Source of the DNA: a virus
Taxonomy: Duplodnaviria > Caudoviricetes
DNA: 60,532 bases
Reading direction: 5' to 3' (one strand)
Virus record (IMG/VR): IMGVR_UViG_3300037440_000200
Location: 1 to 60,532 of that record
Part shown: positions 39,654-60,525 of the stretch, one piece after another
Position numbering within the stretch: position 1 is the stretch's first letter
Layout: every line of letters begins with the position of its first letter
The notes under the pieces: generated by a model
The model's database searches: none
What the model was told of the DNA's origin: nothing
What the model saw: the letters and a program-made list of their open reading frames with translations, nothing else
Made by a program: the position numbers and the translations under genes

Positions 39654-41381
39654 TTATCGCGCCATAGCGCCTTGCAGGAGCCGGTTCTGCTGATCCGGGG
39701 CCATCGCAGGGGCGGCCGGCATTTGCGGCATGGGGCGGCGCTGTGGGGCGCTCTGGCGTTCGACTTGCATGAGGAGCTGCTGAAGCTCAGCCATTTGCGC
39801 TTCGAAGTTCTCCGGCTGCTGCTGTTCCGGCTGACCTTGCATCGCGCTATCGGCCATTGGACTGCCGTCCGGCATGGTGTGCGTTCCGGGCTGCCCGCCG
39901 GGGCGATATGCGTTCTCATAGACGCGGGCGGGGTTCTTCTCCGGGACTTGCGCCATGTCGTAGGCTTCTTCCGGATACCCGCCGACGAATTGCGACACCG
40001 CAGGCATGTTGCGCGCTGTCCAGTTGCGAAGCTGAGCGGTTTCTTCCGGCGTGTAGTCCGTCATGTCTGCGCCCATTTGAGGGGCGAGCATGGGAGCGCC
40101 TGCGGAAAAGGCAGTCGTGACTGATTGGGGGATTGCCTGCAAGAGGCGATTAGCACCATAAGCAGTGCCGCCGGCAACGCCCGCGCTAGTCAGCGCCTGC
40201 TGATTGACGCCTCCAGATGGCGCACCCTGTCCATAAGCAAAATCGTCCTCCGGGCTGCCGGAATACAGGTTGTCTCGTGGCATTGGCTGCCGCGCGGCTT
40301 GACCCGTTGATGCTTGCGCTTCATCGGGTGACATCGCATAGGCCATCGTTGCCGCTGCAATTGGCGCAAAGGCTGGGCTTTTGAGAAGCTTGGTCGCCGC
40401 GCCGCCGCGGGGAGAAGATGAATTCCTTACTGCCTCCGAAACAGCGTCGCGCAATTGTGCGACATTCATGTTGCTGCGGCCGGGAATATTGTGCTTTCTG
40501 GCTTGCTCCATAAGGTCGCCGTATGATCCCGGCAACCTCGGGCGGGACTTCGGCGCTGCCTTTTGCGGCTCCGGTTTGGCTTCAACGGGTTTTGGCAGCG
40601 GTGCTTTTGCCCTGGCTTCGGACGCGTCTGTCCGCGTTGCCAGTTCCTTAGCGGCATTGATGCGAGCAAGAGCCTGCCCCATGCCTGGTTCGCGTGCCGG
40701 GAAGAAGAACCTGCGGCCGCCTTCAACGCCGATACCGGTTCCGCTCCCGAGCAGGAAGTTGGCAATTCGCTGGTTGGACTGCTGCTCGGTATCGGTCAAG
40801 CCCTCATCATTCGCCCGGTCCTGATAATTCTGATATTCGTTGAAAACCAGAGCGGCCGGAATGCCGTAGGAAGCGGCCCGTCCCATAACATTGCCGGCTT
40901 TCATGAGCCGATTGGTCGGAGCAAATCTCTCAGCCGCTTGAGCTGCGCCGAATGCCTTGGCCCGATTGGCTTGCGATGATGTCAGATCGCGCGTTGGGCC
41001 GATTTCGTCGCCGATTTCTTTCAGCGCCTCGACATTGCCGCGCTCGAACCGATCAAGCCCACGGTTGGCAAGCTCGCCATAAACGCCGCCAACGACTGCG
41101 CCCGCACCGAAGGGTGCAAATGTATCCCATACCGGATCGGCAGCCTCTTCGCGCTTCTCCTGCCTTGCAACGCCTTTGTCGGACTGTTCAGCCTGAAGCC
41201 TCTCCCGTTCGAGCTGGATTTCGGCATCGCTCTTTTGCGGTGTCATCTGCTGTTCAAGCACGATTGCCCGCTCTGTCGCCGGACCCATCTTGCCGTCAAT
41301 CTTGCCGGTGTACAAACCCTTCGCTTGCAGACGGGCCTGAATTTCTTTAATCTGCTCAGGATTCATGCTGATTGGAACCAT
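39654..41381 (-). CDS. Internal virion/ejection protein with N-terminal peptidoglycan-binding domain and Rho-N/HeH-like motif
   Basis: IKEIQARLQAKGLYTGKIDGKMGPATERAI; DLMEQARKHNIPGRSNMNVAQLRDAV; Ala/Gln/Gly-rich. Confidence 0.65.
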   Translation of the reverse strand: MVPISMNPEQIKEIQARLQAKGLYTGKIDGKMGPATERAIVLEQQMTPQKSDAEIQLERERLQAEQSDKGVARQEKREEAADPVWDTFAPFGAGAVVGGVYGELANRGLDRFERGNVEALKEIGDEIGPTRDLTSSQANRAKAFGAAQAAERFAPTNRLMKAGNVMGRAASYGIPAALVFNEYQNYQDRANDEGLTDTEQQSNQRIANFLLGSGTGIGVEGGRRFFFPAREPGMGQALARINAAKELATRTDASEARAKAPLPKPVEAKPEPQKAAPKSRPRLPGSYGDLMEQARKHNIPGRSNMNVAQLRDAVSEAVRNSSSPRGGAATKLLKSPAFAPIAAATMAYAMSPDEAQASTGQAARQPMPRDNLYSGSPEDDFAYGQGAPSGGVNQQALTSAGVAGGTAYGANRLLQAIPQSVTTAFSAGAPMLAPQMGADMTDYTPEETAQLRNWTARNMPAVSQFVGGYPEEAYDMAQVPEKNPARVYENAYRPGGQPGTHTMPDGSPMADSAMQGQPEQQQPENFEAQMAELQQLLMQVERQSAPQRRPMPQMPAAPAMAPDQQNRLLQGAMAR

Positions 41382-41560
41382 GTGTTATGGATGAAATCGT
41401 TTATTCGGAAACGCGCCCCGGCGTCATGGAGACTGATCGCGATATTCGCGCCCGCGAAGACCGCATCTATCGCCGCTGGGATAAGGCCGGGCCTTGGATT
41501 CTTCCGGCGGGATTCTTTGTCATGATCGCCATCACCGCAATTGCGGATGTGCTCAAGTGA
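41372..41560 (+). CDS. Small membrane protein (antisense moron 1)
   Basis: C-terminal TM WILPAGFFVMIAITAIA. Confidence 0.5.
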   Translation: MEPCVMDEIVYSETRPGVMETDRDIRAREDRIYRRWDKAGPWILPAGFFVMIAITAIADVLK

Positions 41561-41703
41561 GCTTGGCAATCACGCTCCTACGCATCTACGCAATGAGCGT
41601 AATCGGGGCGCTGGTCTAGCGTGATCGATCCAGACGCACCATATCTGGATCATCTGGAGATTTTCGTTCTCTACGTTCTGCCGCTCATGATCGCGATATT
41701 GAG

Positions 41704-41901
41704 ATGAAACAGGAATTTGAAGACATATACGGCCATAGAGCCTATTACGCGAAAGTCGAGGAGACCCGGATAAAGGTCAGAGACGATGAACTTCGTCAGA
41801 TTGCCCTGAAAAGGGAAAGATCCGAGGACTTCTGGAACGGCATTGGCGGCTGTTTCGTCATCACAACATTGATAGTTGTCATCAGCTATCTCTCCGCCTG
41901 A
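41704..41901 (+). CDS. Small membrane protein (antisense moron 4)
   Basis: C-terminal TM IGGCFVITTLIVVISYL. Confidence 0.55.
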   Translation: MKQEFEDIYGHRAYYAKVEETRIKVRDDELRQIALKRERSEDFWNGIGGCFVITTLIVVISYLSA

Positions 41902-44177
41902 TCCTCTCCTGCAGCGGCAACCGTTCCGATATCCGTTGCTGGCCTGCGACCAACCTTTGCAAATTCACGGATTGCGGCAACATACGCTTGGCGCTGGGCC
42001 GAAGTCCTAGCTTCAGCCGCAAGCCTGCGCAACATTGGAAGCATTTGCGCCGGGTCTGTCGTCGTCAGAATCCGTACCCGTTCGCGAGCCGCACGCTGGC
42101 CGATCTGCCGGGCAAGGCGCGTTGAAAGGTCTTCCAGAACCTTGCCAAAACGTCCTGTAGCCAGGTTTGCGGCCGCGCGCGGGCCTTCCATGAGTTCTGC
42201 CATGTCGTCTTGCAACGGAGCTGTGCGGGAACCAGACAACACATCCCGCGTGGTGTTGGTCGTGATGTTCTCGCGGCGTAGATTGCGAATGAGGCTTTGT
42301 CCGCGATCATAAACCTGCTGCTCAATGGTTCGTTGCGGGCCTCTCGGCGAGCGCGGGCGCGGGTATAGCGATTCAACGATACGCTCGAAACCCTCAGAGC
42401 CAAACTGATCAGCGGCGGCGCGCCCCTGCCGGACGTTGAGCGCATCATCCATCAGCTTTCTTTCGAAGCCGACACGCATCAACTCTTGCTGCGTTGGCGT
42501 CATGTCGCGGAAGTCTCGAAGCGCCTGCCGTGTCTGTGGTGTCAGCCGCTTGCCTATCTCCACCCCGCGATTGAGAATTCTCTCAGTCGTGCGGTTTTCG
42601 GAGAACCTCGCGTCAGCATCGCGAAGCTGCGTGTTGTTGCGGCGAGCAGCATTGTTCAAATCAGTGCGGAACTGCGTCAGCTCGCGCGTAAGCGGCGTTG
42701 CCCGACCGTCCTGCATGGATCGTGCAATCATCTGATCGAGTTCCTGCCTGCGTTCAAGGAACGTCGGCACATCATCGATCACATCCATCGCGCGAGTGTA
42801 GCGCATGCCGCTCTGACCGCTCTGGACCATGCCGCCACGGAAAAACATATCAACGGCCTTGTTGATCCCGCTGTTGATCTCGCCGCCTTCCTGCGGTCGT
42901 CTCGCGCGCCAACGCCGAATGACAGGCAGAACGTTCACCGGCTGGGAATTCTGCCTTGCCAAATTGTATGCGGTCTGCTCTTCCTGCCGTGCAATAGTTG
43001 ACAAGCGTTCGACTTCATCATCGAAGTTCCGGCCTTGCACGCCTGATTGCTCGATGATGCCCGCAGTGCGGCCCGGCTGCTCACGCTGGCGACCAATCAG
43101 CCTCTCGGCCGCAATAGGATCATCAGCGATGGCCATATCGGCGCGCGCCTGATTTGAGAGCGGCATCGCGCCGCCGGAGCCGAGGTCTTCCTTGGCAATG
43201 TCGATGATGTTTCGGGGCGTCGGATTTGCTTCCTGCCACGTGCGGACGTAGTTACGTACCGTGGCAGGGTTTAGACCGTAATCGCGAGCGATAGTGGCGA
43301 CAGGTTCCCCGCGCATGCTCCTGCTGACGATCTCCGCCATGTCGTCTGCGCTGAACGGCGTGCCCGCTGGCGTCATTCGTCCCTGAAGCTGCGTGCTCGG
43401 CTGCGGGGCCACGTCCTGAAACGCGCGTTGCAAATCGAAATCCGCCTTGACGGACTGATCTGCAACGTCTTGATAAGCTGCCTGCTCTGGATTGCGAGCA
43501 CGCTGGATCTGCCTGTTTGCAAAGCGTCCTGCGTCGCGCGTTCCGCTTACAAAGCGTCCGGTCATGTTCAGAGCATTCGGAGCCGCAAACCCGCCAATCA
43601 GACCGAGGCCGACTTCCGCGACCGGCCCCCATTCCTGATCTCGGGCGATGCCAACGCCGCCGCCTGCTCCCGTTGTCGAGGCTGTCTCAATAGCTGCGGC
43701 TTGACCGGGACGCTGCGCAATGCTGTTAAGCAGGCGGTTGCTTGCTGCGCCCGGCAAGCGGCTGGCAACGTTCATAGCGCCAAACGGCAGCACAGAGCCG
43801 CCAGTAACTTCGCCAACGGCTTCCGTAAAACGGCCCGCGCGTGTTTCCGGCGGCGCAACGTTCGCGCGTCTGGCAAGGTTGAGTTCCGGGATAAGCTCGC
43901 CTTCGTAGCCTAGCAACCGCGCGCCCTCGTTGATCGGAACGCGAATAGGCGAGCCGATCACGTTCAGCATGGCGTCAATGCCGGTGTTCGCGCCGTGGCC
44001 GAAGCCCTTGGCCATATCAACGGCAACGTCTGGTCCTGGACCCGGCTTGAACGCCTTCACCGCATCAAGCGTTGCGCCTTCTCCGCCGATATAAGCGTCG
44101 ATCTCAGCTTCCGGCGCACCCTGATCAACCATCTTGCCGACATTGCGCTTGATGCGGCCGAGGTCAAGTTCTGCCAT
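41886..44177 (-). CDS. Large ejection / DNA-transfer protein (P22 gp16-like position)
   Basis: 763 aa, Ala/Arg/Gly-rich helical; MVDQGAPEAEIDAYI N-terminus; position. Confidence 0.65.
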   Translation of the reverse strand: MAELDLGRIKRNVGKMVDQGAPEAEIDAYIGGEGATLDAVKAFKPGPGPDVAVDMAKGFGHGANTGIDAMLNVIGSPIRVPINEGARLLGYEGELIPELNLARRANVAPPETRAGRFTEAVGEVTGGSVLPFGAMNVASRLPGAASNRLLNSIAQRPGQAAAIETASTTGAGGGVGIARDQEWGPVAEVGLGLIGGFAAPNALNMTGRFVSGTRDAGRFANRQIQRARNPEQAAYQDVADQSVKADFDLQRAFQDVAPQPSTQLQGRMTPAGTPFSADDMAEIVSRSMRGEPVATIARDYGLNPATVRNYVRTWQEANPTPRNIIDIAKEDLGSGGAMPLSNQARADMAIADDPIAAERLIGRQREQPGRTAGIIEQSGVQGRNFDDEVERLSTIARQEEQTAYNLARQNSQPVNVLPVIRRWRARRPQEGGEINSGINKAVDMFFRGGMVQSGQSGMRYTRAMDVIDDVPTFLERRQELDQMIARSMQDGRATPLTRELTQFRTDLNNAARRNNTQLRDADARFSENRTTERILNRGVEIGKRLTPQTRQALRDFRDMTPTQQELMRVGFERKLMDDALNVRQGRAAADQFGSEGFERIVESLYPRPRSPRGPQRTIEQQVYDRGQSLIRNLRRENITTNTTRDVLSGSRTAPLQDDMAELMEGPRAAANLATGRFGKVLEDLSTRLARQIGQRAARERVRILTTTDPAQMLPMLRRLAAEARTSAQRQAYVAAIREFAKVGRRPATDIGTVAAAGEDQAER

Positions 44178-45592
44178 TATTCAAGCCCGTATTTCTGCTT
44201 GAGTGCATCGACGTTTCCGCCGGCTGGAGGAGGAGGCGCACCTTGCGGAGAATACCCCGGCTGGAAATATTCACCGGAGCGGATGCCAGACGCCTTCTGA
44301 CTATTGAATTCCAAGCGTCTTTGCGCTGCCGTCTTTGCAGCCTCATAAATCCTCTTGCGGACTTCGGGGGATTTGTTGACACTCCCCTGTACCTGAAGGA
44401 GGATCTGCCGCTCGCCCTCGGTCGGCATCCCGCCGAAGGTCGCCTTCAGGTTTTCAAGAACTTGCTGCGTGACGACATTCTGCAATTGCTCTGTCGCCTC
44501 GCCGCCTTCTGCGCCAGTCAGGCTGGTAAGATAGCCCCTTGTTTCAGCTCCAATCCCGGAATAGGCTTTATCGTTGAGTTCGAGCGCCGTGTCCAAGGCC
44601 GTCATCACATTGCTTGAAGCCTGAGCGCCTTCGTCAGCTTCGAAGATTTCCCGCATGGTCGTTGCGTTCATCGGAGCGCCCGGCTTCGGTGATGCAACGT
44701 AAATCTCTTCACCAGTTGTTGGATCAACGAGTGTTTGCCCTGGCGATACCGTCTTAGGGGATTCGGGTTTTGGCTCTGCCGTGAAGACTGGCCGACCTGT
44801 TGCTGGATCATAAAGAATCTGACCAGGGGAAACGGATTGGAGTGCCTGAGGTTTATCTGGCGCTGAGTAAATCTCTCGGCCTGTGACTGGATCTATGATC
44901 CTCTGACCCGGCGAAACCGTAGTCGGGCGATCTATCTTGGGTACAGGTTCGCGAATAACCTCCATCCCTGAAGACCCGGCACGATAGATCCCCTGATCTG
45001 AGCCGAACGTCTTGTACTCGCTCGCCTTCGGTTCGGTCATCCCCCGCGCTTCCGCTATGATCATATCATAAGTCGCATCGGGATTATTCGCGTCAAAGCC
45101 GTAGCTCTCCAGCAGTTGCTTCATCCGTGGATTGGCATTAAAGAACGTCTGTGTCATCATCGCCTTGCGCTGCGGGTCCGGCTCGTTGCGGATCATCTGG
45201 GCGACGCCTGCGACGCGGCCTGTCAGCTTCGTCTGGATGTCATCTCGCGTCGACTGCACATTCAGCCCGTGCAATTCCTGCGAGCGCGCATCTGCTCCGG
45301 CCGCTCTGCGGTCCTGCGTCATGAGCCGGTTGCGGTTGAAGTCCCGGTCCTCATCGGACTGTTCGACACCAGCAAGCTGCGTTCCCAGCGATATATTGCC
45401 TTGCGCGAATGCCGCGTCTGCGCCGTCGCCATACCCGCCGGATTGTATCGCGGAGCCGATCTGCTTGGACTGATCGAGCAGGCGGTTTTTCTCGAATTTC
45501 TGCCCTAGCGCGTCAATGCCTTGGTTGACCCCGCTGAAATCGAGCGGGCCAGGTGTGCGGAAATCTGGAAGTCGGACGTATCCGGTGGCCAC
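44177..45592 (-). CDS. Ejection protein (P22 gp20-like position) with internal repeats
   Basis: Three VSPGQ..DP.TG repeats; LKATFGGMPTEGERQIL motif. Confidence 0.65.
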   Translation of the reverse strand: MATGYVRLPDFRTPGPLDFSGVNQGIDALGQKFEKNRLLDQSKQIGSAIQSGGYGDGADAAFAQGNISLGTQLAGVEQSDEDRDFNRNRLMTQDRRAAGADARSQELHGLNVQSTRDDIQTKLTGRVAGVAQMIRNEPDPQRKAMMTQTFFNANPRMKQLLESYGFDANNPDATYDMIIAEARGMTEPKASEYKTFGSDQGIYRAGSSGMEVIREPVPKIDRPTTVSPGQRIIDPVTGREIYSAPDKPQALQSVSPGQILYDPATGRPVFTAEPKPESPKTVSPGQTLVDPTTGEEIYVASPKPGAPMNATTMREIFEADEGAQASSNVMTALDTALELNDKAYSGIGAETRGYLTSLTGAEGGEATEQLQNVVTQQVLENLKATFGGMPTEGERQILLQVQGSVNKSPEVRKRIYEAAKTAAQRRLEFNSQKASGIRSGEYFQPGYSPQGAPPPPAGGNVDALKQKYGLE

Positions 45593-45598
45593 TGTATC

Positions 45599-46396
45599 TT
45601 ATCCAATCTGAGAATAATCGACCATTGCGAAGCCGTCCGCATCATGCGAGATTGCTTCGGGGAAAACGCGTTCTGCCTCATGAGCCATCACGCCGATGTG
45701 ACGCTCTGGCCCCCAGATGTACGAGAATTCGTAAGTGGGTAGGCCAGACGGTAGAGTGCCGACGCGCTCAATATCACGTTTGAGACGAATATCGGAAGAG
45801 GCTGGAATTGCCGCCGCTGCCTTAGCCGCCGAGCCTGCGAGATTGAGCAAATTGTTAATGCCCATTGATCGACTTTCCGCCATCGCGTTGCCGAAGCTTG
45901 TTTCCTGCCCCGCCTTCGTGGCTCCATAGCCATACCTGAGATCGCCCTGTCCGGTGCGTATCGCCGCCTGCTGACCGGCATACTGGCCGCCCTGCTGGCC
46001 TTGGCCCGAAAGCCGGTTCAGCCATCCCTCATATCCTTCAAGCCCGACACGAGCGCCTGCAAGAGCCGCCTTGCCGCCATAGGTATTGCCTCGCGCGTTC
46101 AACTGGCGTAGAAGCCGGTTCGACGATTGATCGAGAATCGCCGACATGGCAGGGTCCGAGAAATATCTGCCCTGTGCAGCCGATCGCTGTTCGTCCGTCC
46201 CCAGCCCGATCGCATGGCCGTACATCTCGTTCGCCTGCTGACCCTGTTCTGCATAGGGCGTGAACAGGTCAAAGGCTTCATTGTAAAACGGCTGTGCTTC
46301 GTCGTATCCGGCGTCCAGCTCCTTGTCAGAAGCCGCCTTCGCGTTGCGGAGATCCTTGCGCGCGGAGCCGCCAAAAAAGTCTGAGAAAAAGCCCAA
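45599..46396 (-). CDS. Pilot / DNA-transfer protein (gp7-like) with C-terminal S74-like chaperone domain
   Basis: MGFFSDFFGG start, Gly/Gln/Ala-rich body, SDIRLKRDIERVG..GVMAHE..VDYS tail. Confidence 0.7.
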   Translation of the reverse strand: MGFFSDFFGGSARKDLRNAKAASDKELDAGYDEAQPFYNEAFDLFTPYAEQGQQANEMYGHAIGLGTDEQRSAAQGRYFSDPAMSAILDQSSNRLLRQLNARGNTYGGKAALAGARVGLEGYEGWLNRLSGQGQQGGQYAGQQAAIRTGQGDLRYGYGATKAGQETSFGNAMAESRSMGINNLLNLAGSAAKAAAAIPASSDIRLKRDIERVGTLPSGLPTYEFSYIWGPERHIGVMAHEAERVFPEAISHDADGFAMVDYSQIG

Positions 46397-46405
46397 TTCG
46401 GCCTC

Positions 46406-46573
46406 CTACGGATTAAGGTCTGTGGTGTTCTGGTTTAGCTGTTTCACGAGCAACAGAAGCTGACGATACCAGTCCGGCGATAGCGTGATTTTGACTTCTT
46501 GCTCTTCGCCGTTGACGTTGATTTTCGCGGTCCCTATCGGGATGTTCGCGGAAGGGAGAGAGATTTGCGCCAT
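46406..46573 (-). CDS. 55-aa virion protein (below ORF-track cutoff)
   Basis: Manually translated MAQISLPSANIPIGTAKINVNGEEQEVKITLSPDWYRQLLLLVKQLNQNTTDLNP; fills the gap. Confidence 0.6.
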   Translation of the reverse strand: MAQISLPSANIPIGTAKINVNGEEQEVKITLSPDWYRQLLLLVKQLNQNTTDLNP

Positions 46574-46577
46574 TGGC

Positions 46578-47834
46578 CTATCTGAACCTTACGATCTGCT
46601 GGTCGTCTGGAACGTCCTGCGTTTCCCACGGGGGAGTGGCGCGGCGCTCGGCGGCGTTCATGTTCATGCGGGACTGGACGTTGCGGGCCTCTGTCTCGCC
46701 TGCATGATGCCGGTAAGCAAGTTCCGGGTTCTCTTTCATCGTCAGGTCAAGACGAAGGCGCGGAATCCGGTCAGGATCATTCTTCGCTATTGCAATAGCC
46801 GCTGTATGCCACTCCTTGCCTGCGATCGGCGGAACATATTTCAGAGCCTCATCAATTGAACCGAATTCCTTTGCTGCCTTAAGCAGAAACTCAGCCTGTT
46901 CTACAACTTCAGGGTCTGGCGCATAACCGGCGATCGTCGCACTCTTTGGATCGCTGCCACGTGCAAAGCCTTCCCGACCTTGCACAAGATGCTGAAGCTC
47001 ATGAAGCGCGTATGAACGCCCATCATTAGCATTCATATCGTTTGCTAGAGCCATTGACCCCCTTGAATGCGTTACGCCACCCATAACATTTTCACCGAAG
47101 GCCCCCCTTGGGAAAAACATCAGCGGCGCTTCGCCCACATCCGAGTATGCTCGGTACAAATCATCATGCCCTACGGCAAAGTCCACTTGGGCATTATCAA
47201 ATGATGGATCATATGGTCTTCCGTCGAATTCTGCCGCCTCTTTCAATTCTGGATACGCATCGGTATCATAATATGATTTGCTATCATCGATCTCGAACTT
47301 CCACTTGCCGTCAACGCCTTGCATCCATCCGGTATCGCGCCAGATGTCATCACGTGACGCGCCTTGCGTCGCCATTTCCTGAGCTTGCGAGAGCGCCTGC
47401 TGATCCGCAGTTTTCGCTGTTGGCCCTGCAAAGATCATCGTCGTATTTGCCGGATCGCTCGGATACACAGAGTCAAGCAGCCGGTTAAAGCCTGTCGGCA
47501 AATTCCTGTCCATCCATGCAGCACCGCGTTTCGTGCCTCTGGCGACGATGCCAGCGCCGGGGATTGCGCCGAGGAGGCCGGTTCCCATGTTGAGGTACTC
47601 AGAAGCAGCGTCGCCGTAATTGCCCTGCAGCAGCGCGTTGCCGCCGCGTCCGGACGCGTCCCAAGCGTCGCGTGCCGCCATAGCTTCCCCGGAGACCGGA
47701 GCCATCCCGAGGCCGAATTCAGCGAACGGGATCAGATTGCGCCACGTTGCTTCCGGTGATATGCCCTGACCGTAGGCAAAATCGTCCTCCGGGCTGACCC
47801 TTTGGCTTCTCAGGAGCCGGTTCTGTTCACTCAC
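46578..47834 (-). CDS. LPD23-domain protein with zincin-like HExxH motif
   Basis: IWRDTGW..GVDGKWKFEIDD, LHELQHLVQGREGFARG, Y..HAGETEARNVQSR. Confidence 0.75.
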   Translation of the reverse strand: MSEQNRLLRSQRVSPEDDFAYGQGISPEATWRNLIPFAEFGLGMAPVSGEAMAARDAWDASGRGGNALLQGNYGDAASEYLNMGTGLLGAIPGAGIVARGTKRGAAWMDRNLPTGFNRLLDSVYPSDPANTTMIFAGPTAKTADQQALSQAQEMATQGASRDDIWRDTGWMQGVDGKWKFEIDDSKSYYDTDAYPELKEAAEFDGRPYDPSFDNAQVDFAVGHDDLYRAYSDVGEAPLMFFPRGAFGENVMGGVTHSRGSMALANDMNANDGRSYALHELQHLVQGREGFARGSDPKSATIAGYAPDPEVVEQAEFLLKAAKEFGSIDEALKYVPPIAGKEWHTAAIAIAKNDPDRIPRLRLDLTMKENPELAYRHHAGETEARNVQSRMNMNAAERRATPPWETQDVPDDQQIVRFR

Positions 47835-49267
47835 GCGGCCAGCCTGTCAAAATCGACGCTGACGCCAAGCATCACGCGCTCAACCGGCGCGGAGATGCGG
47901 AACCTGTACATGCGGCCCTTCTGGCCAGTGCGGCCCATGCGGCGGATTGGTTTGATGCGGCGATATTGGGCCGTCGCGTGAAGATCGCGTTCGCGCTCCG
48001 TTATCCAGCTATAGCCTCCGTCATCGCTCCACGAGACGAGGAGCTTGGGATCACTTGCATGCGTGTCCGTCGAGTTCAGCCCAACGCCGGTTGCTGCATC
48101 GATGTAAAGACCGTTGAATTTCAGGCGATAGGGGAAGGCATGAACCGGCGGCGTGATGATCTCGGAGACAAGGTGATTGCCCGCTTCGGTAAACACGGTA
48201 TTGCTGAGCGTGTAGAGCTGGCCTGTGCTATAGTCTCCGGCAATGATCTTGTTGCCGAACTTGAACACGGTGCTGACCCGCCAGCGGTCGAGTTCGTAGC
48301 TTTCGCGCGTGTGCCAGTGGCCGGTCTTGCTGTCGAATACCCGGGTCCATGAACTGCAGGTCAGGCAGTAGAAGAACCGCCCGGCGCGTGCCCATGAGAA
48401 ACCCTTGAGCTGATCGGCGTTCCCGGCTTCGTCGAGATCCTTGATCATCTCCTCGATTTCATTCGTCGAGATGACTTCGCCGGAATAGCCGCTCATGGCG
48501 CGGACGGTGTGATCTGGCGCAACCCAGATGATCGTCTTGCGGGATGGCGTGTCGACCTTTGCGACGCTATCCCCGGCAAGGCAGCCAAGCTCCAGCGCAT
48601 GAACGCGCTCAAACGGGAAATCCGGATCGCCGGTGTTCTGGTGCCATTCGATCGAGGTTTCCTTGAAGAACACAGCTTCACGTTCGAGGGTCATTGAGCG
48701 AAGGGTTTCGTCCGGGTATGCTTCCAGAGTGCCTTCATCAAGTCCGTCGATCGTGGTAAAATTATCAATTCCGGTCAGGAAATACGTCGCCCCGACTACC
48801 GGGATGACGCCATAGCCGTCCAGCACCGATATCGAGATCGGTGACGGCAGGTCAGGATCGCTGATCTCGGTCACGGAGTTGGCGAGCGTGTCAATGACGT
48901 AATACAGGCCGTCCGACACCACGCCGATCTGCGCGGGACTGCGACGGTTGCGCTCCATGTAGACAGGACCGTCCGTCGCGATGCCGCCGATCAGCGTTCC
49001 GACGCCGCTCGGGTTTACGGCATAGACGTTGCGGCCAACGACGACATAGGCTGCTGTCGTGCCTATAGCTATCCCAGCACGAACGCCCCCGCCACTGAGC
49101 GCAGAACCGAACGCGGTCAATCCCTCGGTGGAATAAATCGCCCAGACTGTTTTGCCATCTTGTGAAATTTCTTCAGCGAAGCAGTTCACAAGTTGGCAAT
49201 TTCCAGCCTGAGGATTTCTGGCCGGGTTTGTGCGCAAGCCGAGTGAAATCGAGGTCGGTTCTCCCAT
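47831..49267 (-). CDS. Packaged-DNA stabilisation / tail hub protein (P22 gp10-like)
   Basis: Beta-rich 478 aa; LLVSWSDDGGYSW..RRMG..RMYRFRISAPV. Confidence 0.8.
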   Translation of the reverse strand: MGEPTSISLGLRTNPARNPQAGNCQLVNCFAEEISQDGKTVWAIYSTEGLTAFGSALSGGGVRAGIAIGTTAAYVVVGRNVYAVNPSGVGTLIGGIATDGPVYMERNRRSPAQIGVVSDGLYYVIDTLANSVTEISDPDLPSPISISVLDGYGVIPVVGATYFLTGIDNFTTIDGLDEGTLEAYPDETLRSMTLEREAVFFKETSIEWHQNTGDPDFPFERVHALELGCLAGDSVAKVDTPSRKTIIWVAPDHTVRAMSGYSGEVISTNEIEEMIKDLDEAGNADQLKGFSWARAGRFFYCLTCSSWTRVFDSKTGHWHTRESYELDRWRVSTVFKFGNKIIAGDYSTGQLYTLSNTVFTEAGNHLVSEIITPPVHAFPYRLKFNGLYIDAATGVGLNSTDTHASDPKLLVSWSDDGGYSWITERERDLHATAQYRRIKPIRRMGRTGQKGRMYRFRISAPVERVMLGVSVDFDRLAA

Positions 49268-49638
49268 CAGAAGTAAGTCCCCGGAGCACTGAGACCGGAC
49301 GATTCCCGCGCGGTCAGCCGCCGCAGCATGTTCCAGCCTTTCTTGCCCATTGAAACCTGCATTCCGGTCTCCACATCGATCTCCACGGGCGCGGGATCGC
49401 CGAATGACGGCCCGACCATATCCGCTATGATCCGGACGATGGCAAGAAAGGCTTCGTTCGGGATGGTGTCCTCCGACCAGTAGACGATTTCGCGTTCCTG
49501 CATCTGCGCATAGGCGAACCAGTCGGAATAAATTCTCTTGATATGAGCGTCATCCGCTGAATCCGGCGTCTCATCCTGGGAGATCCAGTTCGGCAGCCGC
49601 ATGACTTCGGTTGCAAGTTCCGTCGTGGTTCTCGACAT
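49267..49638 (-). CDS. Head-tail adaptor (P22 gp4-like)
   Basis: Helical 123 aa ending YF; directly upstream of gp10-like gene. Confidence 0.6.
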   Translation of the reverse strand: MSRTTTELATEVMRLPNWISQDETPDSADDAHIKRIYSDWFAYAQMQEREIVYWSEDTIPNEAFLAIVRIIADMVGPSFGDPAPVEIDVETGMQVSMGKKGWNMLRRLTARESSGLSAPGTYF

Positions 49639-49967
49639 CAGCAATAATCCGTAAATGGATCGTCAAAGAAGGCTGACTTTCTGACGATGAAATTGCCCTC
49701 AAGCGCGATCACCTTGCCGGTTCCTGTGGTTTTCCAACGGAAATGCCAACGCCCCGCTTCATCAGGGACGACATCCGCGGTATAGTTCCCCGTTGATGCC
49801 TTCTGCACTTCGCTGTCGGTGCCGTAGACGTATGCCGTCTCACTGCCGGAAGGCGAGAATATGCTGAAAGTCACCGTGTCCGGATCGATTGCGGTTCCAT
49901 CGCTATCGGTGAATGCGGCCGTAAGCCGAAGCTCCGTTTCGACATAGATTATTCCAGGTTCAAGCAT
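49638..49967 (-). CDS. Small beta-rich virion protein
   Basis: FTDSDGTAIDP..STGNYTAD..AGRWHFRW. Confidence 0.55.
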   Translation of the reverse strand: MLEPGIIYVETELRLTAAFTDSDGTAIDPDTVTFSIFSPSGSETAYVYGTDSEVQKASTGNYTADVVPDEAGRWHFRWKTTGTGKVIALEGNFIVRKSAFFDDPFTDYC

Positions 49968-50386
49968 CAGTTTCCATATGCCCTTCTACCGCCGCCCGTC
50001 GTGCCTCCGGCGCGCACGCCTCCACCGGTCGAGCCGGCCGATCTGTTGCCGCCCCCAGCGACGCCAGCGGCTCGCACAGCGCCGCCAAATGACCCATCCG
50101 CCCGCGTTGCACCGCTCGTAACGCCTCTAATGCGTCCCCTGATGACCTTGAGTGCCGTAGCGCTGAGCGTATCAGCAGCTTCGGTGATAACCGCAACGCC
50201 GAATATCTGGAGAGCGGCTGTTGCGGAGAGAGTATCGGCCGCTTCCGTGATAGCCGCTGCGCCAACAATCGGCAGGACAGCAGTCGAGGCAAGCGTATCT
50301 GCCGCCTCGGTGATGTCTGCCGATGCAATGCGCCCGGTAATGTCATCTGCAAGAGGAAGCGCTGCGAGAGGGGCAAAGCCGAGCAC
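49967..50386 (-). CDS. Virion-associated protein with ITEAADTL repeats and Gly/Arg-rich tail
   Basis: MLGFAPLAALPLADD start; three 20-aa repeats. Confidence 0.55.
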   Translation of the reverse strand: MLGFAPLAALPLADDITGRIASADITEAADTLASTAVLPIVGAAAITEAADTLSATAALQIFGVAVITEAADTLSATALKVIRGRIRGVTSGATRADGSFGGAVRAAGVAGGGNRSAGSTGGGVRAGGTTGGGRRAYGN

Positions 50387-50392
50387 TTATGA

Positions 50393-50800
50393 TCAACCGT
50401 TGTTATCGGCAATGCTGAATGTACTAACAGTAAATTGCTGGCCAGACGCGAAAACAGCGTTATCAACTTCCATGTCTGCGCCGCTGCCGGTCGCACCGAC
50501 CGTGCCTTGCATGTGGCAGGTCGTATCACCTGAATCGTAAATGCGAAAATGCCCAGCCGTTCCCGCTGCATCCGCTGATGCATCCTGCCATGTGCCGGAT
50601 TTGGCCTTCGATCCGCCTGATGCAGCCGCCATCCAGTCTGATGGCAGTGTGAGCGTTGCCAGCACGGTCCCGCTGTCAGCCGTTGCGCAGTCCGCAGGGG
50701 GCGTGCTGGTGCGAATGCGCATGATCGGCGCGGTGCTGATCGTGGTTTCGATGGAATCGAGCTTTGCGTTTCTGAGGCTTGTGGAATACTGTATCGCCAT
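50393..50800 (-). CDS. Conserved structural protein
   Basis: RNAKLDSI..LATLTLPSDW..GTAGHFRI..QGTVGATGSGAD. Confidence 0.65.
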   Translation of the reverse strand: MAIQYSTSLRNAKLDSIETTISTAPIMRIRTSTPPADCATADSGTVLATLTLPSDWMAAASGGSKAKSGTWQDASADAAGTAGHFRIYDSGDTTCHMQGTVGATGSGADMEVDNAVFASGQQFTVSTFSIADNNG

Positions 50801-50804
50801 CGGC

Positions 50805-50996
50805 TCAATCCTCTTTCATGAGCCGGTCGACGGCATCCTTGACGCCAGCCTTGCCAAGCTGCTCTTCGAAGGCTTTCAGCCCATCATAGCGCTTGACTGT
50901 CGCGCGGATCATGGTCTTGCAGTTCTCGATGACCTTGATCCGAGCCGCGATCGAGGCCGCGGCCTGATCGGGGACCAGGCGAAGCTCATTCGCCAT
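50805..50996 (-). CDS. Hypothetical protein
   Basis: Coupled to flanking genes. Confidence 0.5.
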   Translation of the reverse strand: MANELRLVPDQAAASIAARIKVIENCKTMIRATVKRYDGLKAFEEQLGKAGVKDAVDRLMKED

Positions 50997-51297
50997 TTTC
51001 AGCGTCCTTGATGGCGGCGGCGATCTTGTCGGCATTCCATCGCTTGTCGATCTTGACGCCCTTGGCTTCTGCCTCGGCGATCAATGCATTCTTGTCAGGC
51101 TCGGCATTCAGAAGACGATTGCGCGGCTCTTCCGGCTCCGGCTTGCGGTCTTTCACTTCCTCAAAAAACCGGTTGCCTTGCGCCTTGCCGACGCACCGGG
51201 CAGGAACCTCCAGTTCAGCGCCTGGCGTGAACATGACGCCGTAGCACTCAACGCTCTGCTTGCCCTCCGGGTAGTCACCAATGTAACGGAATTTCAT
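50986..51297 (-). CDS. Small head-associated protein with HeH/LEM-like tail
   Basis: [25 protein letters not shown]. Confidence 0.6.
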
Positions 51298-52240
51298 CGT
51301 TTTCCATCTCTCTGGAGTTGAAATATTCGATCGTGGCTTTCAGCCCGTCGTCAAGTGATGTCACCGGCTCCCAGCCGAGCAGGAGCTTTGCTCTCGTGAT
51401 GTCAGGGCGTCGACGAAGAGGATCGTCTGCCGGCAGGTCGCGGAAGCTGATTTTCAACCCGGCTCCGGTCATCTCCGTCACCTTCTCGGCAAGCTCGCGC
51501 ACGGTGATCTCCTGCGGGTTGCCCAGATTGACCGGCCCCGTTACGCTATCGACGCTCTCCATCAACCTGATCAGACCTGACACCAGATCATCGACATAGC
51601 AGAATGACCGCGTCTGGCTGCCGTCACCATAGAGCGTGATGTCTTCGCCGCGTAGCGCTTGCGTGATGAAGTTTGACACCACACGCCCGTCTTCCGGGTG
51701 CATGTTCGGGCCGTAAGTGTTGAAGATCCGCGCGACCTTGATCCTCACACCGTGTTGGCGATGGTAGTCGAAGAACAGCGTCTCGGCGCAGCGCTTGCCT
51801 TCATCGTAGCAGGCGCGTGGCCCGATCGGATTGACGTTGCCGCAATAGGTCTCAATCTGCGGATGGACAAGCGGATCGCCGTAAACCTCGGAAGTCGAAG
51901 CCTGCAGGATCTTCGCATTGCATCGCTTGGCCAGATCCAGCATGTTGATTGCACCGATGACGCTGGTCCTGGTCGTCTGCACCGGATCATATTGATAATG
52001 GATCGGCGATGCAGGACATGCGAGATTATAGATTTCATCCACTTCGGCGTGGAGCGGGGTGATGATATCATGCCGCCTGAGTTCGAAGTTCCTGTTGCCT
52101 AGCAGCGGCAGAACATTCCGGCGCGCGCCGGTAAAGAAGTTATCGATGCAGAGAACTTCATTACCCTGCTCGATGAGCGACTTGCACAGGTGAGAACCGA
52201 CGAACCCGGCCCCGCCAGTCACCAGAATTCGTTTAGCCAA
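51275..52240 (-). CDS. uxs: UDP-glucuronate decarboxylase (UDP-xylose synthase), extended SDR
   Basis: [61 protein letters not shown]. Confidence 0.93.
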
Positions 52241-52772
52241 TTGAACACCGCGAAGGCTTGACGGCTTTCAAGCCGTAGTGAAAGCTTAAGCCTTCATCGA
52301 CATGACTGTGAACGACATCAAAATCTGCCTTGTACAGATATCGGTAATCGGACATTGGTGTCTTGCCGATCTGTTTGTCATATTGCGTCTGGACAAGAAA
52401 TGTGAGTAACCCAAGCCCAATTACGCGCGTGTGCCCTGGGTCCATCCATGCCCATTTGCTCGACCAATGCGGCGATGTTGCCATGATGAAGCCACCGGGC
52501 TTCAGAATGCGCCACCATTCCGACCATTCCGCAAAGAATGACTGGTAATCGCCCTGCTGGCCGAGATGCTCCAGCACTTCGAAAGCCCTGATGCTATCGA
52601 ATGTGTCATCATCGAAAGGGAGCGGCCTGATATTGAGATCCCAGACCACATCGGGTTTATGGTCCGGGTTGATATCGAGCGTGGTGAGATCGCCCCAGGC
52701 TTCGCTCTCGCCCGGCGCCAGCATTGTCTTATCCCGGCGTGCGCCGCACCCGATCAGAAGCTCACGCAGCAT
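52233..52772 (-). CDS. Class I SAM-dependent methyltransferase
   Basis: [41 protein letters not shown]. Confidence 0.88.
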
Positions 52773-57119: not shown

Positions 57120-57935
57120 CTAGCCTCGCTTGCGATTCATCATGTCGTTGAAAAAGTCCTTGTCCGAGCCAATCGCGCCAGGCTGGTTAGGGTCTGCGCG
57201 CGTGGCTGACGACAAGGGAGGAGTGATGTTCGATGGCGGCGGCGTGCCCTGCCTCATTTCCGCAAGCAACTGCTGCTTTACTTCAGCCTTCAGCCTCTCC
57301 TTGTAGGCGTTCGGATCTTCTCCGATCGTCTCCTGGAGCTGCTGAGCCTTGTGCCAGCGCACCATCTCGCCATAGGCGTCCGGCTTGCTGACGAAGGCTT
57401 GTGCGAATCCTGACCGCTGGGCCGCCTCAAGTGCGGCTTCAACGGCGTCTGCCCCGTGAGCATCGCGCGCACGGCGCTCTGACTCGTTGAGGGTCATGTT
57501 CAGGAAACGCTGTTCCATCCGGTTTTCGATGGATTGAACAAAGGCGTCCGGATCTTCAAGAGGATCGATCCGGGGCTGTGGCTGTTGCGGAGGCTGGCTG
57601 AACCGAGCCATCATCTGCTTCAACTGATCGATTTCCCGCTGCTGATTACGCTGTAAATCTTCAGCTTGCTGGCGACGCTTACGCTCATCGATCAGCTCGC
57701 CAAGAGGCACCTGATGCTGTTGAGGCTGTTGCTGCTGGGCAGGCGGCGGTTCCTGGCCGGGAACGGGCTGCTGCTGTTGCGGCGGGACTGCCTCGGTTAC
57801 TGGCTGATGAAAGAAGTCCACATCTGGTGGCGACGGCTGCTCGCTGGGCTGCGGATTGGCCTGTTCCGTAGATGGCGCTGCATTTTGAGGCGCAAACAGA
57901 TGCGAAATGCTTGTCTCAGCACTTTCGGTGCTCAT
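57120..57935 (-). CDS. Scaffolding protein
   Basis: Pro/Gln-rich N-terminus, VPLGELIDERKRRQ coiled coil, DPLEDPDAF; between portal and capsid. Confidence 0.8.
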   Translation of the reverse strand: MSTESAETSISHLFAPQNAAPSTEQANPQPSEQPSPPDVDFFHQPVTEAVPPQQQQPVPGQEPPPAQQQQPQQHQVPLGELIDERKRRQQAEDLQRNQQREIDQLKQMMARFSQPPQQPQPRIDPLEDPDAFVQSIENRMEQRFLNMTLNESERRARDAHGADAVEAALEAAQRSGFAQAFVSKPDAYGEMVRWHKAQQLQETIGEDPNAYKERLKAEVKQQLLAEMRQGTPPPSNITPPLSSATRADPNQPGAIGSDKDFFNDMMNRKRG

Positions 57936-58457: not shown

Positions 58458-60525
58458 GAGAGCCGGGAGAACCTGATACACCTTCCGGGCCTGCCTGTGG
58501 CATCATGGCGTTCTGAGGCGGCTCCTGATCCTGCAATTCGCCTTCCTTCTGTGCCGCCAGCATGAGCCGCTCCATGAATGTAGGCTCCCGGTAATGCATC
58601 GGGAACATGCCATTCATCGCTTGCGGCGGAATGCCAGTGTTTGCCGTGACCTCGACAATCTTGCTGTACGCTTCGGCGCGGCTCTTTTCAGCGTTCGCGA
58701 CCTTCGTGTCAACGTCGGCCGCCTTGTTCATCGCTTCAAGCTTGGCCATACGCTCGGCAAGCTCCTGAACGCCAGGCGGCGGCTGTTTTGACTCGGCAAG
58801 GCGCTTGAGAATGATGTCCTTGTCCGGCAAGGTGGACAGTTCAAGGATGATCTCAAGCGGCACGTCGGGACGATCGGCAATGGCCTGGATCAGTTCCTCG
58901 CGCATCGTCACCGTGTCCGGCCCCTGATCGAGCAGGACATCGACGTCCATGTCCATCATGGAGTTTTCGACCGTCACTTGCCCAGTCGCCGGATCTTCGA
59001 CGATCTTGTTGATGTTCAAGAACTCAACGGCTTTCGGGTCGGACGTGATGCGGATGTATCGCTCGCCGGTCCAGAACTGTTGCGCCAGATCCCAGTCCTT
59101 GTGGTAGACTGAAAGCTCCCATTCGCGCTTCATTTCAAAGACCGGCGACAGCTCAGTCATGCCGGAATTCTGCTGCGCAAGGATGGCGCGGCCGGACTGG
59201 TTCTCCACGCCGCGCCCGATGAGACCGGGGTTCGGGCCAAGGTTCTCGATCTCGGCCTTGTCCTCCTGCAACAATTCGAACTGGCCGGCCGTCTGTGCGC
59301 TCTGGTCGACGAACTGGAAATCCTCGCCGAGATTGCCGTTGATCTCGATATGACCGTCCGGCCTCGCGGCTTCCCGCTTCATCTTGTCTACGTCGGGGAC
59401 AGCGCCGGTTTTCCCCATTGTCTGGCGCTGGTTCAGCAGATGCAGCATCTTGCTGGAGCGCTTGTTGATGCCGTCCTGAAGCGATATCATGTCTCTCACG
59501 ACGCCGTAGCGCACGCCGGATTCATCGACATAAGGCGACCATGCGTTATAAGGATGCACGGTCTGCTCATCTTCATTCAGGTAAGGCGACTTGCAGTCAT
59601 AGTCTTCCGGGCACAGGCTGATCGGACCGGTAAGATAGTCGAACATCCAGTCGCCACCGTATTTATACCAGATGTGGGTGACGCGGATCAAACGCTTGCG
59701 GCTGTCCATCCACGTTGATCGGTTATTGATCTTGGCGAATTCCTGCGGCAATGTGGACATTGCGCCGCTATTGCCGATGCGGGCAAGTTCGTTGATGATC
59801 TGGGCCGAGAACGGCATCATCTCGATGGCCTGGTCCATGTCGAGCCACTGCCATTCACCCAGATATCGGGCGTCGGCGAAATCCCACGCCTCGCTTGCAG
59901 GGTCGTAGAAGAACCTGTCAGCCGGAACGTGAGCCTTGCAGATCTCCGGCTTGTTGCGCCTGATCTTGATGCCCTGCCAGACGACGCCGATGCCGCGAAT
60001 GAGCGCATCTTTCGTCGCGGCGGACGATAGCTGCGTCCACTTGGTTTCGTCCTCGATGCAGCGTAGTGCGGCGGTGCTGACATACGCCGCCTTGTCTGCG
60101 GCGGGTGTGCGAGGATAGCATTTCGGATCACGCCGCAAACGCTGTTCGACGCCGACAAGGAAGTCCACCTTGCGCTTGATGCGGTTCTTGGTAGTCGGCG
60201 GCTGCTTGCGGCGCTTCAGCTCGCGCAGTTCAGCGTCCGTCCACTGCTTGCTGTGATAGTAGCGGGAGCATTTGAACTGCTCGTCGATCTCGCCGGTCTG
60301 CCGCTTGGCGTCTTCCCATGCCTGATATTTCCTGTCGAGGCTATCACCATCAAGGCGCGGTGAAAGCTGGGGCGTCGTCTGCGGCTGTGGCAGGTGCTCA
60401 AGCTGAACCTGCCCGCTCATGATGGCCTTTTCTGGCGTGATCATCACTTCATCGGGGGAGACGAAGTTCTCGAACGCCTGGCGCGGCTGCATGTCATGAT
60501 AGCCGAGCATCATATCACTCGCCAT
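58363..60525 (-). CDS. Portal protein (P22-like)
   Basis: YYHSKQWT..L..R.QPP...NRI, RYGVVRDM..QD.INKR.SK, SGRAILAQQ, DVLLDQGP; upstream of scaffold. Confidence 0.9.
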   Translation of the reverse strand: MASDMMLGYHDMQPRQAFENFVSPDEVMITPEKAIMSGQVQLEHLPQPQTTPQLSPRLDGDSLDRKYQAWEDAKRQTGEIDEQFKCSRYYHSKQWTDAELRELKRRKQPPTTKNRIKRKVDFLVGVEQRLRRDPKCYPRTPAADKAAYVSTAALRCIEDETKWTQLSSAATKDALIRGIGVVWQGIKIRRNKPEICKAHVPADRFFYDPASEAWDFADARYLGEWQWLDMDQAIEMMPFSAQIINELARIGNSGAMSTLPQEFAKINNRSTWMDSRKRLIRVTHIWYKYGGDWMFDYLTGPISLCPEDYDCKSPYLNEDEQTVHPYNAWSPYVDESGVRYGVVRDMISLQDGINKRSSKMLHLLNQRQTMGKTGAVPDVDKMKREAARPDGHIEINGNLGEDFQFVDQSAQTAGQFELLQEDKAEIENLGPNPGLIGRGVENQSGRAILAQQNSGMTELSPVFEMKREWELSVYHKDWDLAQQFWTGERYIRITSDPKAVEFLNINKIVEDPATGQVTVENSMMDMDVDVLLDQGPDTVTMREELIQAIADRPDVPLEIILELSTLPDKDIILKRLAESKQPPPGVQELAERMAKLEAMNKAADVDTKVANAEKSRAEAYSKIVEVTANTGIPPQAMNGMFPMHYREPTFMERLMLAAQKEGELQDQEPPQNAMMPQAGPEGVSGSPGSPMALGGPQQAMPGEEPQLDQAGGLPMGPGVG

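Follow-up and report, generated by a model that had tools for sequence, protein, structure and literature searches.

A recurrent N-x-[LM]-[LM] peptide in presumptive capsid-interior proteins of P22-like podophages is a candidate docking tag

Introduction

In phage T4, ten N-terminal residues of the internal protein IpIII suffice for loading, and in phage P22 the ejection proteins load through their N-terminal portions, as shown for gp7 and gp20; P22 loading requires the scaffold as well as these N-terminal portions, and the parts of the source that treat loading define no signal (PMC8402733). In the structure of the P22 procapsid the ejection proteins are found at the inner end of the scaffold columns (PMC12005531), and in cyanophage A4 the N-terminal 92 residues of gp29 intercalate between the helices of the portal C-terminal barrel (PMC12002296). 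Here we analyze IMG/VR record IMGVR_UViG_3300037440_000200, a complete 60,532-bp record of a temperate phage that is called the window throughout, and a four-residue peptide, NRL[LM], that recurs in six of its predicted proteins. We read this peptide as one form of a motif, N-x-[LM]-[LM], that appears to mark capsid-interior proteins in a large, mostly uncultured group of P22-like podophages.

In encapsulins, a short conserved peptide carried by diverse cargo enzymes directs them to an HK97-fold shell; the peptides bind the shell protein and are usually present in one copy, at the C-terminus. Prohead-protease sites, which read L/I-x-E in T4 and S/A/G-x-E in phiKZ and SPN3US, are likewise short motifs that occur in many head-internal proteins. 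The LPD23 and ART-PolyVal domains, both of which are encountered below, belong to the polyvalent proteins of phages and conjugative elements and have been described in conflict proteins delivered by virions (PMC5512222).

Results

NRL[LM] is concentrated in six proteins of the window

Six-frame translation of the window gives 11 NRL[LM] peptides, all on the minus strand, and ten of these fall in six open reading frames (ORFs), which encode proteins of 575 aa (three copies), 763 aa (one), 471 aa (two), 265 aa (one), 418 aa with an LPD23 domain (two) and 103 aa (one). A first-pass annotation had reported these ten copies, and each was recovered exactly where it had been placed. The proteins and their copies are as follows.

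39654..41381, minus strand: 575-aa presumptive ejection protein with N-terminal PG_binding_1; NRLM at residue 157, NFLL at 208, NRLL at 411, NRLL at 566
40902..40913, minus strand: NRLM, residues 157-160 of the 575-aa protein
40140..40151, minus strand: NRLL, residues 411-414 of the 575-aa protein
39675..39686, minus strand: NRLL, residues 566-569 of the 575-aa protein, 10 from the C-terminus
41886..44177, minus strand: 763-aa presumptive ejection protein, phrog_5880 (function unknown); NRLL at 147
43728..43739, minus strand: NRLL, residues 147-150 of the 763-aa protein
44177..45592, minus strand: 471-aa presumptive ejection protein of a large family; NRLL at 36, NRLM at 88
45476..45487, minus strand: NRLL, residues 36-39 of the 471-aa protein
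45320..45331, minus strand: NRLM, residues 88-91 of the 471-aa protein
45599..46396, minus strand: 265-aa presumptive virion protein with a C-terminal Peptidase_S74 chaperone domain; NRLL at 93, NNLL at 181
46109..46120, minus strand: NRLL, residues 93-96 of the 265-aa protein
46578..47834, minus strand: 418-aa cargo protein with an N-terminal module at 1-132 (NRLL at 5, NALL at 66, NRLL at 117), LPD23 at 134-186 and an HExxH region
47811..47822, minus strand: NRLL, residues 5-8 of the cargo protein
47475..47486, minus strand: NRLL, residues 117-120 of the cargo protein, within predicted helix 114-123
50986..51297, minus strand: 103-aa small protein; NRLL at 60 in an acidic, proline-rich linker
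51109..51120, minus strand: NRLL, residues 60-63 of the 103-aa protein

Several copies lie near termini, as had been pointed out, at residues 5-8 of the LPD23 protein, ten residues from the end of the 575-aa protein and at residue 36 of the 471-aa protein. The label "ejection protein" is inferred from gene order after the gp10-like gene, from PG_binding_1 and from weak PHROG labels. In P22-like phages such genes stand between the gp4/gp10 tail-hub genes and the tail fibre or spike; the gene order here agrees with this, and the 575-aa protein carries PG_binding_1. In a PDB sequence search, the profile of the 471-aa family and the 763-aa and 575-aa proteins gave no match except for the PG-binding domain of the 575-aa protein (E 0.04), and no homology to P22 gp7, gp20 or gp16 or to any solved ejection protein was found. 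The 103-aa protein had been labeled an HeH protein, a name that finds no backing in Pfam or PHROG, where no family was found for it.

Counts were made on a proteome of 98 ORFs (18,464 aa), in which the six motif proteins total 2,595 aa. NRLL is the commonest 4-mer in this set, with 8 copies against 6 for the runner-up, and the other 92 ORFs contain no NRL[LM]. Composition alone would give 0.37 NRL[LM] for the whole proteome and 0.057 for the six proteins, where ten are observed, which bears out the earlier estimate of well under one by chance in about 2,600 aa. Shuffling each protein 1000 times never gave more than three NRL[LM] and gave none in 711 cases, and a scan of all 3- to 5-residue patterns in the six proteins found NRLL (P ~1e-16) and its sub-patterns as the sole outliers. 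A DNA repeat was rejected, in agreement with the first-pass annotation, because the codons differ between copies (AAC/AAT for Asn, CGG/CGC/CGT for Arg and five Leu codons). Paralogy was rejected as well, since all-against-all BLASTP of the six proteins found no similarity except for one 11-residue identity that lies outside the motif. In our reading of these sequences, selection acts on the peptide, at the protein level.

The 11th NRLL (49478-49489, minus strand) lies in a non-coding frame that overlaps a 125-aa ORF upstream of the gp10-like gene. It is also present in L008, one of the relatives introduced below, and is taken as a chance match riding on conserved coding DNA.

A longer peptide, SPEDDFAYGQG, is shared without change by the cargo protein (residues 14-24) and the 575-aa protein (residues 376-386).

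47763-47795 and 40224-40256, minus strand: copies of SPEDDFAYGQG, identical at 30 of 33 DNA positions, with all three differences synonymous

In the cargo protein it comes right after the first NRLL, and in the 575-aa protein it stands 25 residues ahead of an NRLL. Many cargo homologues begin M..NRLL.SPEDD and others begin ..VDHDPFA; PEDDF occurs once each in L001, L002, L008 and L030, and does not occur in the L001 orthologue of the 575-aa protein. This peptide may be a second linear motif or may reflect a recent transfer of a segment.

Relaxed copies, which the first-pass annotation had missed, are also present, as NALL, NFLL and NNLL in the motif proteins and at two further places in the head module.

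58501..58512, minus strand: NAMM, residues 672-675 of the 720-residue portal (portal 58363-60525), in the disordered C-terminal tail
57138..57149, minus strand: NDMM, 9 residues from the C-terminus of the scaffold-position protein (57120-57935)

The NNLL at residue 181 of the 265-aa protein is kept in six of seven aligned orthologues and reads NNLF in L009; it may be structural. The scaffold-position protein terminates FFNDMMNRKRG, and conservation at this end is loose, with KDMM, NETL, NELF and SDVF in relatives. The scaffolds of L012, L013 and L045 carry a similar peptide at both ends (N-terminal ..DVFSPGRDRGG, C-terminal ..SDVFAPDRKARG), and the scaffold of the window has PDVDFF near its N-terminus and DKDFF near its C-terminus. 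Such paired end peptides may be two coat-binding ends.

Relatives keep the motif while its position and its second residue change

Relatives were collected through the gene next to the cargo gene, which served as an anchor.

47831..49267, minus strand: P22 gp10-like head-closure protein, phrog_578 (E 1.4e-79); motif-free; anchor gene

This gave 24 loci on viral contigs, 19 metagenome loci and one Hyphomicrobium prophage (L045). The close relatives, at 68-96% gp10 identity, are L001, L005, L007 and L026. Named phages are distant, with a top gp10 identity of 32.9% among 44 records; megablast of the region against named phages gave no match, and the 471-aa protein had only two weak matches among them.

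The peptide has been kept in the close relatives, and its position shifts within orthologues. NRLL is the top-enriched 4-mer in all four, with 8 copies in L001 (expected 0.065), 6 in L005 (0.089), 6 in L026 (0.056) and 5 in L007 (0.104). In the 763-aa orthologues the window, L005 and L026 share the motif column, whereas L001 and L007 have lost it and carry the motif 8 columns downstream. In the 575-aa orthologues the first copy occupies four different alignment columns (one shared by the window and L005, and one each for L026, L001 and L007), the copy at residue 411 keeps its column in all five (window, L001, L005, L007 and L026), and the C-terminal copy does so in all four in which the C-terminus lies inside the locus (window, L001, L005 and L026). 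The motif of the 103-aa protein is retained in L001, L002 and L008. Presence that is kept while position moves is typical of a short linear motif.

The second residue varies by lineage. Site 93 of the 265-aa protein reads NRLL in the window, NALL in L001, L005, L026 and L034, and NEML in L009. At 53% gp10 identity (L009 and L010) the enriched 4-mer is NDMM (4 copies, expected 0.01), together with NEMM, NDLL and NEML; at 49% it is NALM, with 5 copies in L012 (expected 0.037) and 4 in L045; and at 40% and 37% (L037 and L038) NALL, NALM or NVLL is found. Because lineages have their own variants and a single site can read NRLL, NALL or NEML, the motif as judged from these alignments is N-x-[LM]-[LM], with the Arg at position 2 a variant of one lineage. 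A set of 71 non-redundant instances has R as x in 29 cases and A in 20; in this set the following residue is polar or Gly and nothing else is conserved, and 55 of the 71 lie beyond residue 40. When 17 loci are pooled, proteins downstream of gp10 contain 2.70 motifs per 1000 aa (101 in 37,414 aa) and those upstream 0.69 (28 in 40,773 aa), a count in which the upstream matches include portal tails and scaffold ends and the greedy ORF picker missed the 575-aa ORF of the window.

Several phages lack this enrichment. P22 has one relaxed match in the 12 proteins scanned, the ejection proteins of N4 show neither enrichment nor terminal bias and its portal has no tail motif, and in Rhodoferax phage P26218 and Pseudanabaena phage Pam5 the motif is found in neither the ejection proteins nor the portal tails. 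Among the collected loci, L015 is nearly motif-free and has NALA where its relatives read NALL.

The motif concentrates in the 471-aa family, a cargo module and portal tails

A profile search places 8,387 proteins in the family of the 471-aa protein at E <= 0.001. Among the best 150 representatives of these, 104 carry N-x-[LM]-[LM], and 118 of the 159 matches lie in the first 80 aa, at a density of 9.8 per 1000 aa compared with 0.78 elsewhere and an expectation of 0.44; position x is taken by R in 65 of the matches and by A in 60. The motif shifts between lineages within this N-terminal stretch. An N-terminal bias is as expected of a loading signal, with a precedent in the N-termini of P22 gp7 and gp20 (PMC8402733). 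In the orthologues of L007 (15700-17517) and L034 (3503-4498), the motif-bearing N-terminus is followed by an insert of ~210 residues that the window protein does not have. We read this insert, from its sequence, as lytic-transglycosylase-like (a GDR.YGKYQVMG stretch, with no family match), which would be consistent with an ejection protein that crosses the cell wall.

Residues 1-132 of the 418-aa protein form a module that is found in 63 proteins, including that of the window, in front of C-terminal parts that are LPD23 in 25, ART-PolyVal in 7, GNAT in 1, PF19593 in 1 and without a Pfam domain in 29. These proteins have 121 motif matches in their first 140 residues (13.7 per 1000 aa) versus 5 in the remainder (0.34), and in 29 of the 63 a motif falls within the first 10 residues, at residues 4-8. 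The LPD23 domain of the window protein is a clear match (PF18838, E 5.3e-24; score 84 bits, Pfam cut-off 27); the alignment also shows an HExxH sequence (HELQH), and DUF6782 scores below its cut-off. In L007 the slot after gp10 is taken by an ADP-ribosyltransferase protein with N-terminal NPLL, NPLL and NMLL. The first-pass annotation had proposed an accessory LPD23 peptidase as cargo, and the protein does carry the motif; it is one of several interchangeable cargo enzymes on a common module. An AlphaFold2 model of the cargo protein has a helical N-terminal module with the first copy in the disordered N-terminus, and a Foldseek search of this model against the PDB gave no fold match (0 of 49 at E <= 0.001).

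The third concentration is the C-terminal tail of the portal, which in the window is rich in Pro, Gln, Gly and Met. Among 120 portal homologues, 43 have one to three copies in the last 110 residues, mostly NAMM, NPMM, NALM or NPML, at a density of 5.2 per 1000 aa compared with 0.14 in the portal bodies. Among phages for which both proteins were available, motifs in the portal tail and in the ejection proteins are both present in the window, L007, L009, L045 and MW202785 and both absent in P22, P26218 and Pam5; the exceptions are L012, L037 and L038, in which the ejection proteins have the motif without a strict portal copy. The same variant can occupy both places, NDMM in L009 and NALM in L045. 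The earlier observation that the peptide is missing from early, capsid, portal and tail-fibre proteins thus holds for NRL[LM] and fails for the relaxed form, which is present in the portal tail as NAMM. Across protein classes, the motif occurs in presumptive internal proteins, in cargo enzymes and in the portal tail, and not in early, coat, tail-hub or fibre proteins. This distribution, with its N-terminal bias in the 471-aa family and the cargo module, agrees with the restriction to presumptive internal or ejection proteins and accessory cargo that had been proposed, and it fits an address tag for the capsid interior.

Candidate partners of the motif

The LPD23/HExxH protein is excluded by gene content as the partner of the motif or as a protease acting on it. 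L026 (13 kb) has seven NRL[LM] and no LPD23 gene, and among four further records that keep the motif no LPD23 domain is found in three, those of L007, L009 and L012 (93, 84 and 68% complete). The coat and the scaffold can both change under a retained motif. L037 has a P22-type coat (P22_CoatProtein) and a non-homologous scaffold (hhalign probability 0.4%), yet it carries NAL[LM] three times at typical positions. In MW202785, which has a Phage_capsid_4 coat, the ejection protein carries NALM and NPML within its first 80 residues and the portal tail carries NPLM. L015 has the scaffold family of the window (probability 99.9%) and its coat family, with hardly any motif. Since the motif persists with three coat families (Phage_capsid_3, P22_CoatProtein and Phage_capsid_4) and across a swapped scaffold, a coat- or scaffold-specific partner is weakly disfavored, and its presence in portal C-terminal tails points toward an internal body at the portal vertex.

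Covariation and co-folding did not single out a partner. Charge-swap covariation between motif position 2 and the coat, scaffold, portal and gp10 gave 1, 0, 1 and 1 candidate columns, from only 9-10 sequences. A control-free co-fold of the first 66 residues of the 471-aa protein with the coat and the scaffold (alignments of 10, 74 and 9 rows) returned an ipSAE of 0.00 in both runs. Within the docking reading taken up below, we rank the C-terminal region of the portal, or another ejection protein, somewhat ahead of the scaffold as a candidate partner, and the scaffold ahead of the coat.

Other features of the window

The morphogenesis module lies on the minus strand from ~60.5 kb down to 35.9 kb, in the order portal (P22_portal, E 3e-96), scaffold-position protein, coat (Phage_capsid_3; relatives are labeled "N4-gp56 family" in their sources), small head proteins, sugar cassette, the gp10-like gene, five genes for proteins of 418, 265, 471, 763 and 575 aa, and two tail-fibre genes. 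Elsewhere the window encodes an integrase, a CI-like HTH/S24 repressor and the ERF and YqaJ recombination proteins, as in a temperate phage, as well as a GcrA-like regulator, a DNA methylase and the large and small terminase subunits.

A sugar-modification cassette (51275-53883, minus strand) sits between the head and tail genes.

52762-53883, minus strand: GT4 glycosyltransferase
52233-52772, minus strand: methyltransferase
51275-52240, minus strand: NAD-dependent epimerase/dehydratase (E 1e-53)

This cassette could glycosylate the virion or alter the host surface in lysogenic conversion. At the corresponding place L005 has another cassette, with a 542-aa methyltransferase/MptE-like protein and a 394-aa protein, and it retains the motif, a point that bears on the idea of the peptide as a glycosylation sequon.

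The GcrA-like cell-cycle regulator (E 2e-24) adjoins an N6/N4 DNA methylase (16128-17797, minus strand), and interference of this pair with host cell-cycle control is possible. The GcrA-like gene and the relative L045, a Hyphomicrobium prophage, suggest an alphaproteobacterial host. A search for the 471-aa family in 401 genomes of the class of L045 matched 5, 4 of them solely in the C-terminal domain. Between the cargo gene and the gene for the 265-aa protein lies a small ORF (46406-46573, minus strand) of 55 aa in the window and ~80 aa in L001, L005, L026 and L034, where it is well conserved (..WLKKTNQDSLSTNGKLTV..); the window copy appears shortened at its C-terminus. RNA folding of the gap at 41382-41885 gave z = -1.65, which is nothing notable.

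Discussion

From these comparisons we infer a loading or retention function for N-x-[LM]-[LM], and with moderate confidence we favor a docking tag that recruits internal proteins to a body at the portal vertex and holds them there. The tagged classes would be the ejection proteins, the 103-aa protein and interchangeable enzymatic cargo. During procapsid assembly the tag would gather these proteins into that body and keep them in place, such that they are packaged and later ejected, and the contact, putatively with the portal C-terminal region or with another ejection protein, might be made by helix-to-helix packing. More tentatively, the tag may be portable and multivalent, with the twelve portal tails, the ejection proteins and the injected enzymes binding a common partner or each other and so building a pre-ejectosome. 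The linear docking motif of the first-pass annotation is retained here in part: a selected linear peptide is supported, the Arg proved to vary between lineages, portal tails had been missed, and nothing in the analysis shows binding to the scaffold, capsid or portal that had been named as co-folding targets.

Several results weigh against a docking tag at the portal vertex. The covariation and co-fold analyses yielded no binding partner for the motif, and the packaging of the motif-bearing proteins in the virion is presumptive. In an AlphaFold2 model of the portal monomer the tail motif is disordered (pLDDT 33-35), with no sign of contact with the portal body, and in the cargo model the second and third copies are inside confident helices (pLDDT ~80), not in free linkers. 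Placement at the C-terminus is not enriched, with 3 of 71 instances against 3.9% of residues. The S74 domain of the 265-aa protein is typical of trimeric fibres or spikes, and this protein might be a tail needle or plug outside the head. The homologous modules of L015, P26218, Pam5 and P22 do without the motif, which argues against a general requirement for loading.

Foremost among the other explanations, and still unlikely in our judgment, is a function after ejection, in which the motif helps the ejected proteins to rebuild a trans-envelope conduit or binds a host factor such as a chaperone; taken together with this, the motif of the portal tail would only hold the proteins before their release. 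The motif tracks the module of gp10 and the ejection genes and not the coat or scaffold family, as in L037 and MW202785, and the GcrA-like regulator and DNA methylase of the window and the Hyphomicrobium prophage L045 make a shared host clade possible. NRLL also begins the DnaK model peptide NRLLLTG. The portal tail, however, never meets the host cell envelope, soluble cargo enzymes are unlikely to be parts of a conduit, and the strict Asn suggests a specific partner. DnaK sites have a hydrophobic core of 4-5 residues with basic flanks and disfavor acidic residues, a rule poorly matched by only two hydrophobic residues followed by a polar residue or Gly and by the acidic variants NDMM and NEMM of L009, and the DnaK-peptide idea was set aside. 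We consider next, and find somewhat less probable, that the scaffolding protein or the inner coat surface binds the motif, the version put forward by the first-pass annotation. Such binding would resemble that of encapsulin peptides or of the coat-binding end of the scaffold itself. P22 ejection proteins need the scaffold and not the portal for incorporation, according to the sections of PMC8402733 and PMC12005531 on this step, and the scaffold end FFNDMMNRKRG resembles the ejection-protein C-termini NEMMRPR in L009 and NRLLAIR in L005. Against this stand the persistence of the motif under three coat families and with the non-homologous scaffold of L037, its near loss in L015 with the same scaffold and coat families, and the poor conservation of the scaffold NDMM itself.

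A processing site, cut at N-x-[LM]-[LM] by a host protease or an unrecognized phage protease that removes N-terminal propeptides and trims the portal tail in maturation, as the T4 and phiKZ-type prohead proteases do at their sites, is placed lower again, as improbable. Such a site would look much like the present motif, which is short, is found in several proteins of the head interior and lies mostly in their N-terminal third, and in P22 the host protease OpdA removes 20 residues from the N-terminus of gp7 (annotation of the P22 record). A Pfam scan of about 40 of the 98 ORFs, however, found no prohead protease in the head module or among the other ORFs, and its only peptidase matches were the S24 repressor and the HExxH region of the cargo. 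The LPD23/HExxH protein cannot be the enzyme, as no LPD23 domain is found in the records of L007, L009, L012 or L026, all of which keep the motif. Copies at residues 4-8 or near the C-terminus would free only trivial peptides, and the flanks of the motif show no residue preference. That the motif has no shared function, and recurs as an element at the start of helices or as a remnant of composition or shared descent, seems to us very improbable. The AlphaFold2 model of the cargo does put its copies at a helix of residues 6-9, at the end of helix 49-69 and in helix 114-123, yet this explanation has to face an enrichment of more than 100-fold, the lack of paralogy among the six proteins, the motif-free non-virion proteins, a copy number that is kept while positions change, and variants that are common to the portal tail and the ejection proteins of one phage (L009 and L045).

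A docking tag of the favored kind would resemble the signal of T4 IpI-III, a short near-N-terminal peptide that selects proteins, accessory ones included, for the prohead and for injection. The T4 signal is, however, a single N-terminal leader that is cut off by the prohead protease, whereas the motif here has four residues, is present in multiple copies at internal and C-terminal positions as well, is common to the portal tail, has no sequence similarity to the T4 signal and comes with no prohead protease among the ~40 ORFs scanned with Pfam. With P22 gp7, gp20 and gp16 the locus shares the gene order after the gp10-like gene; the P22 proteins are without the motif and have no defined linear signal, and loading in P22 depends on the scaffold, whereas the motif here does not track the scaffold family. 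Cyanophage A4 offers an ejection-protein N-terminus set against portal C-terminal helices, the two places that bear the motif here, but A4 is T7-like and unrelated in sequence, no common motif has been described for it, and the corresponding contact here is inferred only. The motif differs from encapsulin peptides in spanning three coat families, and the cargo gene adjoins the gp10-like gene (downstream in the window, upstream in L005) and not the coat gene, unlike in encapsulins. It differs from prohead-protease sites in that no protease gene was found in the ORFs scanned, copies sit at extreme termini and the flanks show no preference. Finally, the cargo proteins are small, with a single effector behind a common motif-bearing module, and not giant multidomain proteins like the polyvalent ones. 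No prior description of the motif was found in the phage-capsid and podovirus ejection-protein literature searched, and the candidate tag differs from known capsid-targeting signals in its sequence, its multiple copies, its freedom of position, its occurrence in the portal tail and the lack of an associated protease in the ORFs scanned.

How podophage ejection proteins are selected for packaging is a long-standing open question, which a four-residue tag would open to direct tests by point mutation and reporter fusion. Virion-delivered effectors of the peptidase, ADP-ribosyltransferase and acetyltransferase types would also become recognizable in metagenomic phages by a sequence rule, and the tag could be used to load phage heads with proteins that are to be delivered to bacteria. 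If the tag is in fact multivalent, as tentatively suggested above, it alone would decide what the phage packages and injects, such that injected effectors could be predicted from their sequences and a foreign protein given the tag could be loaded.

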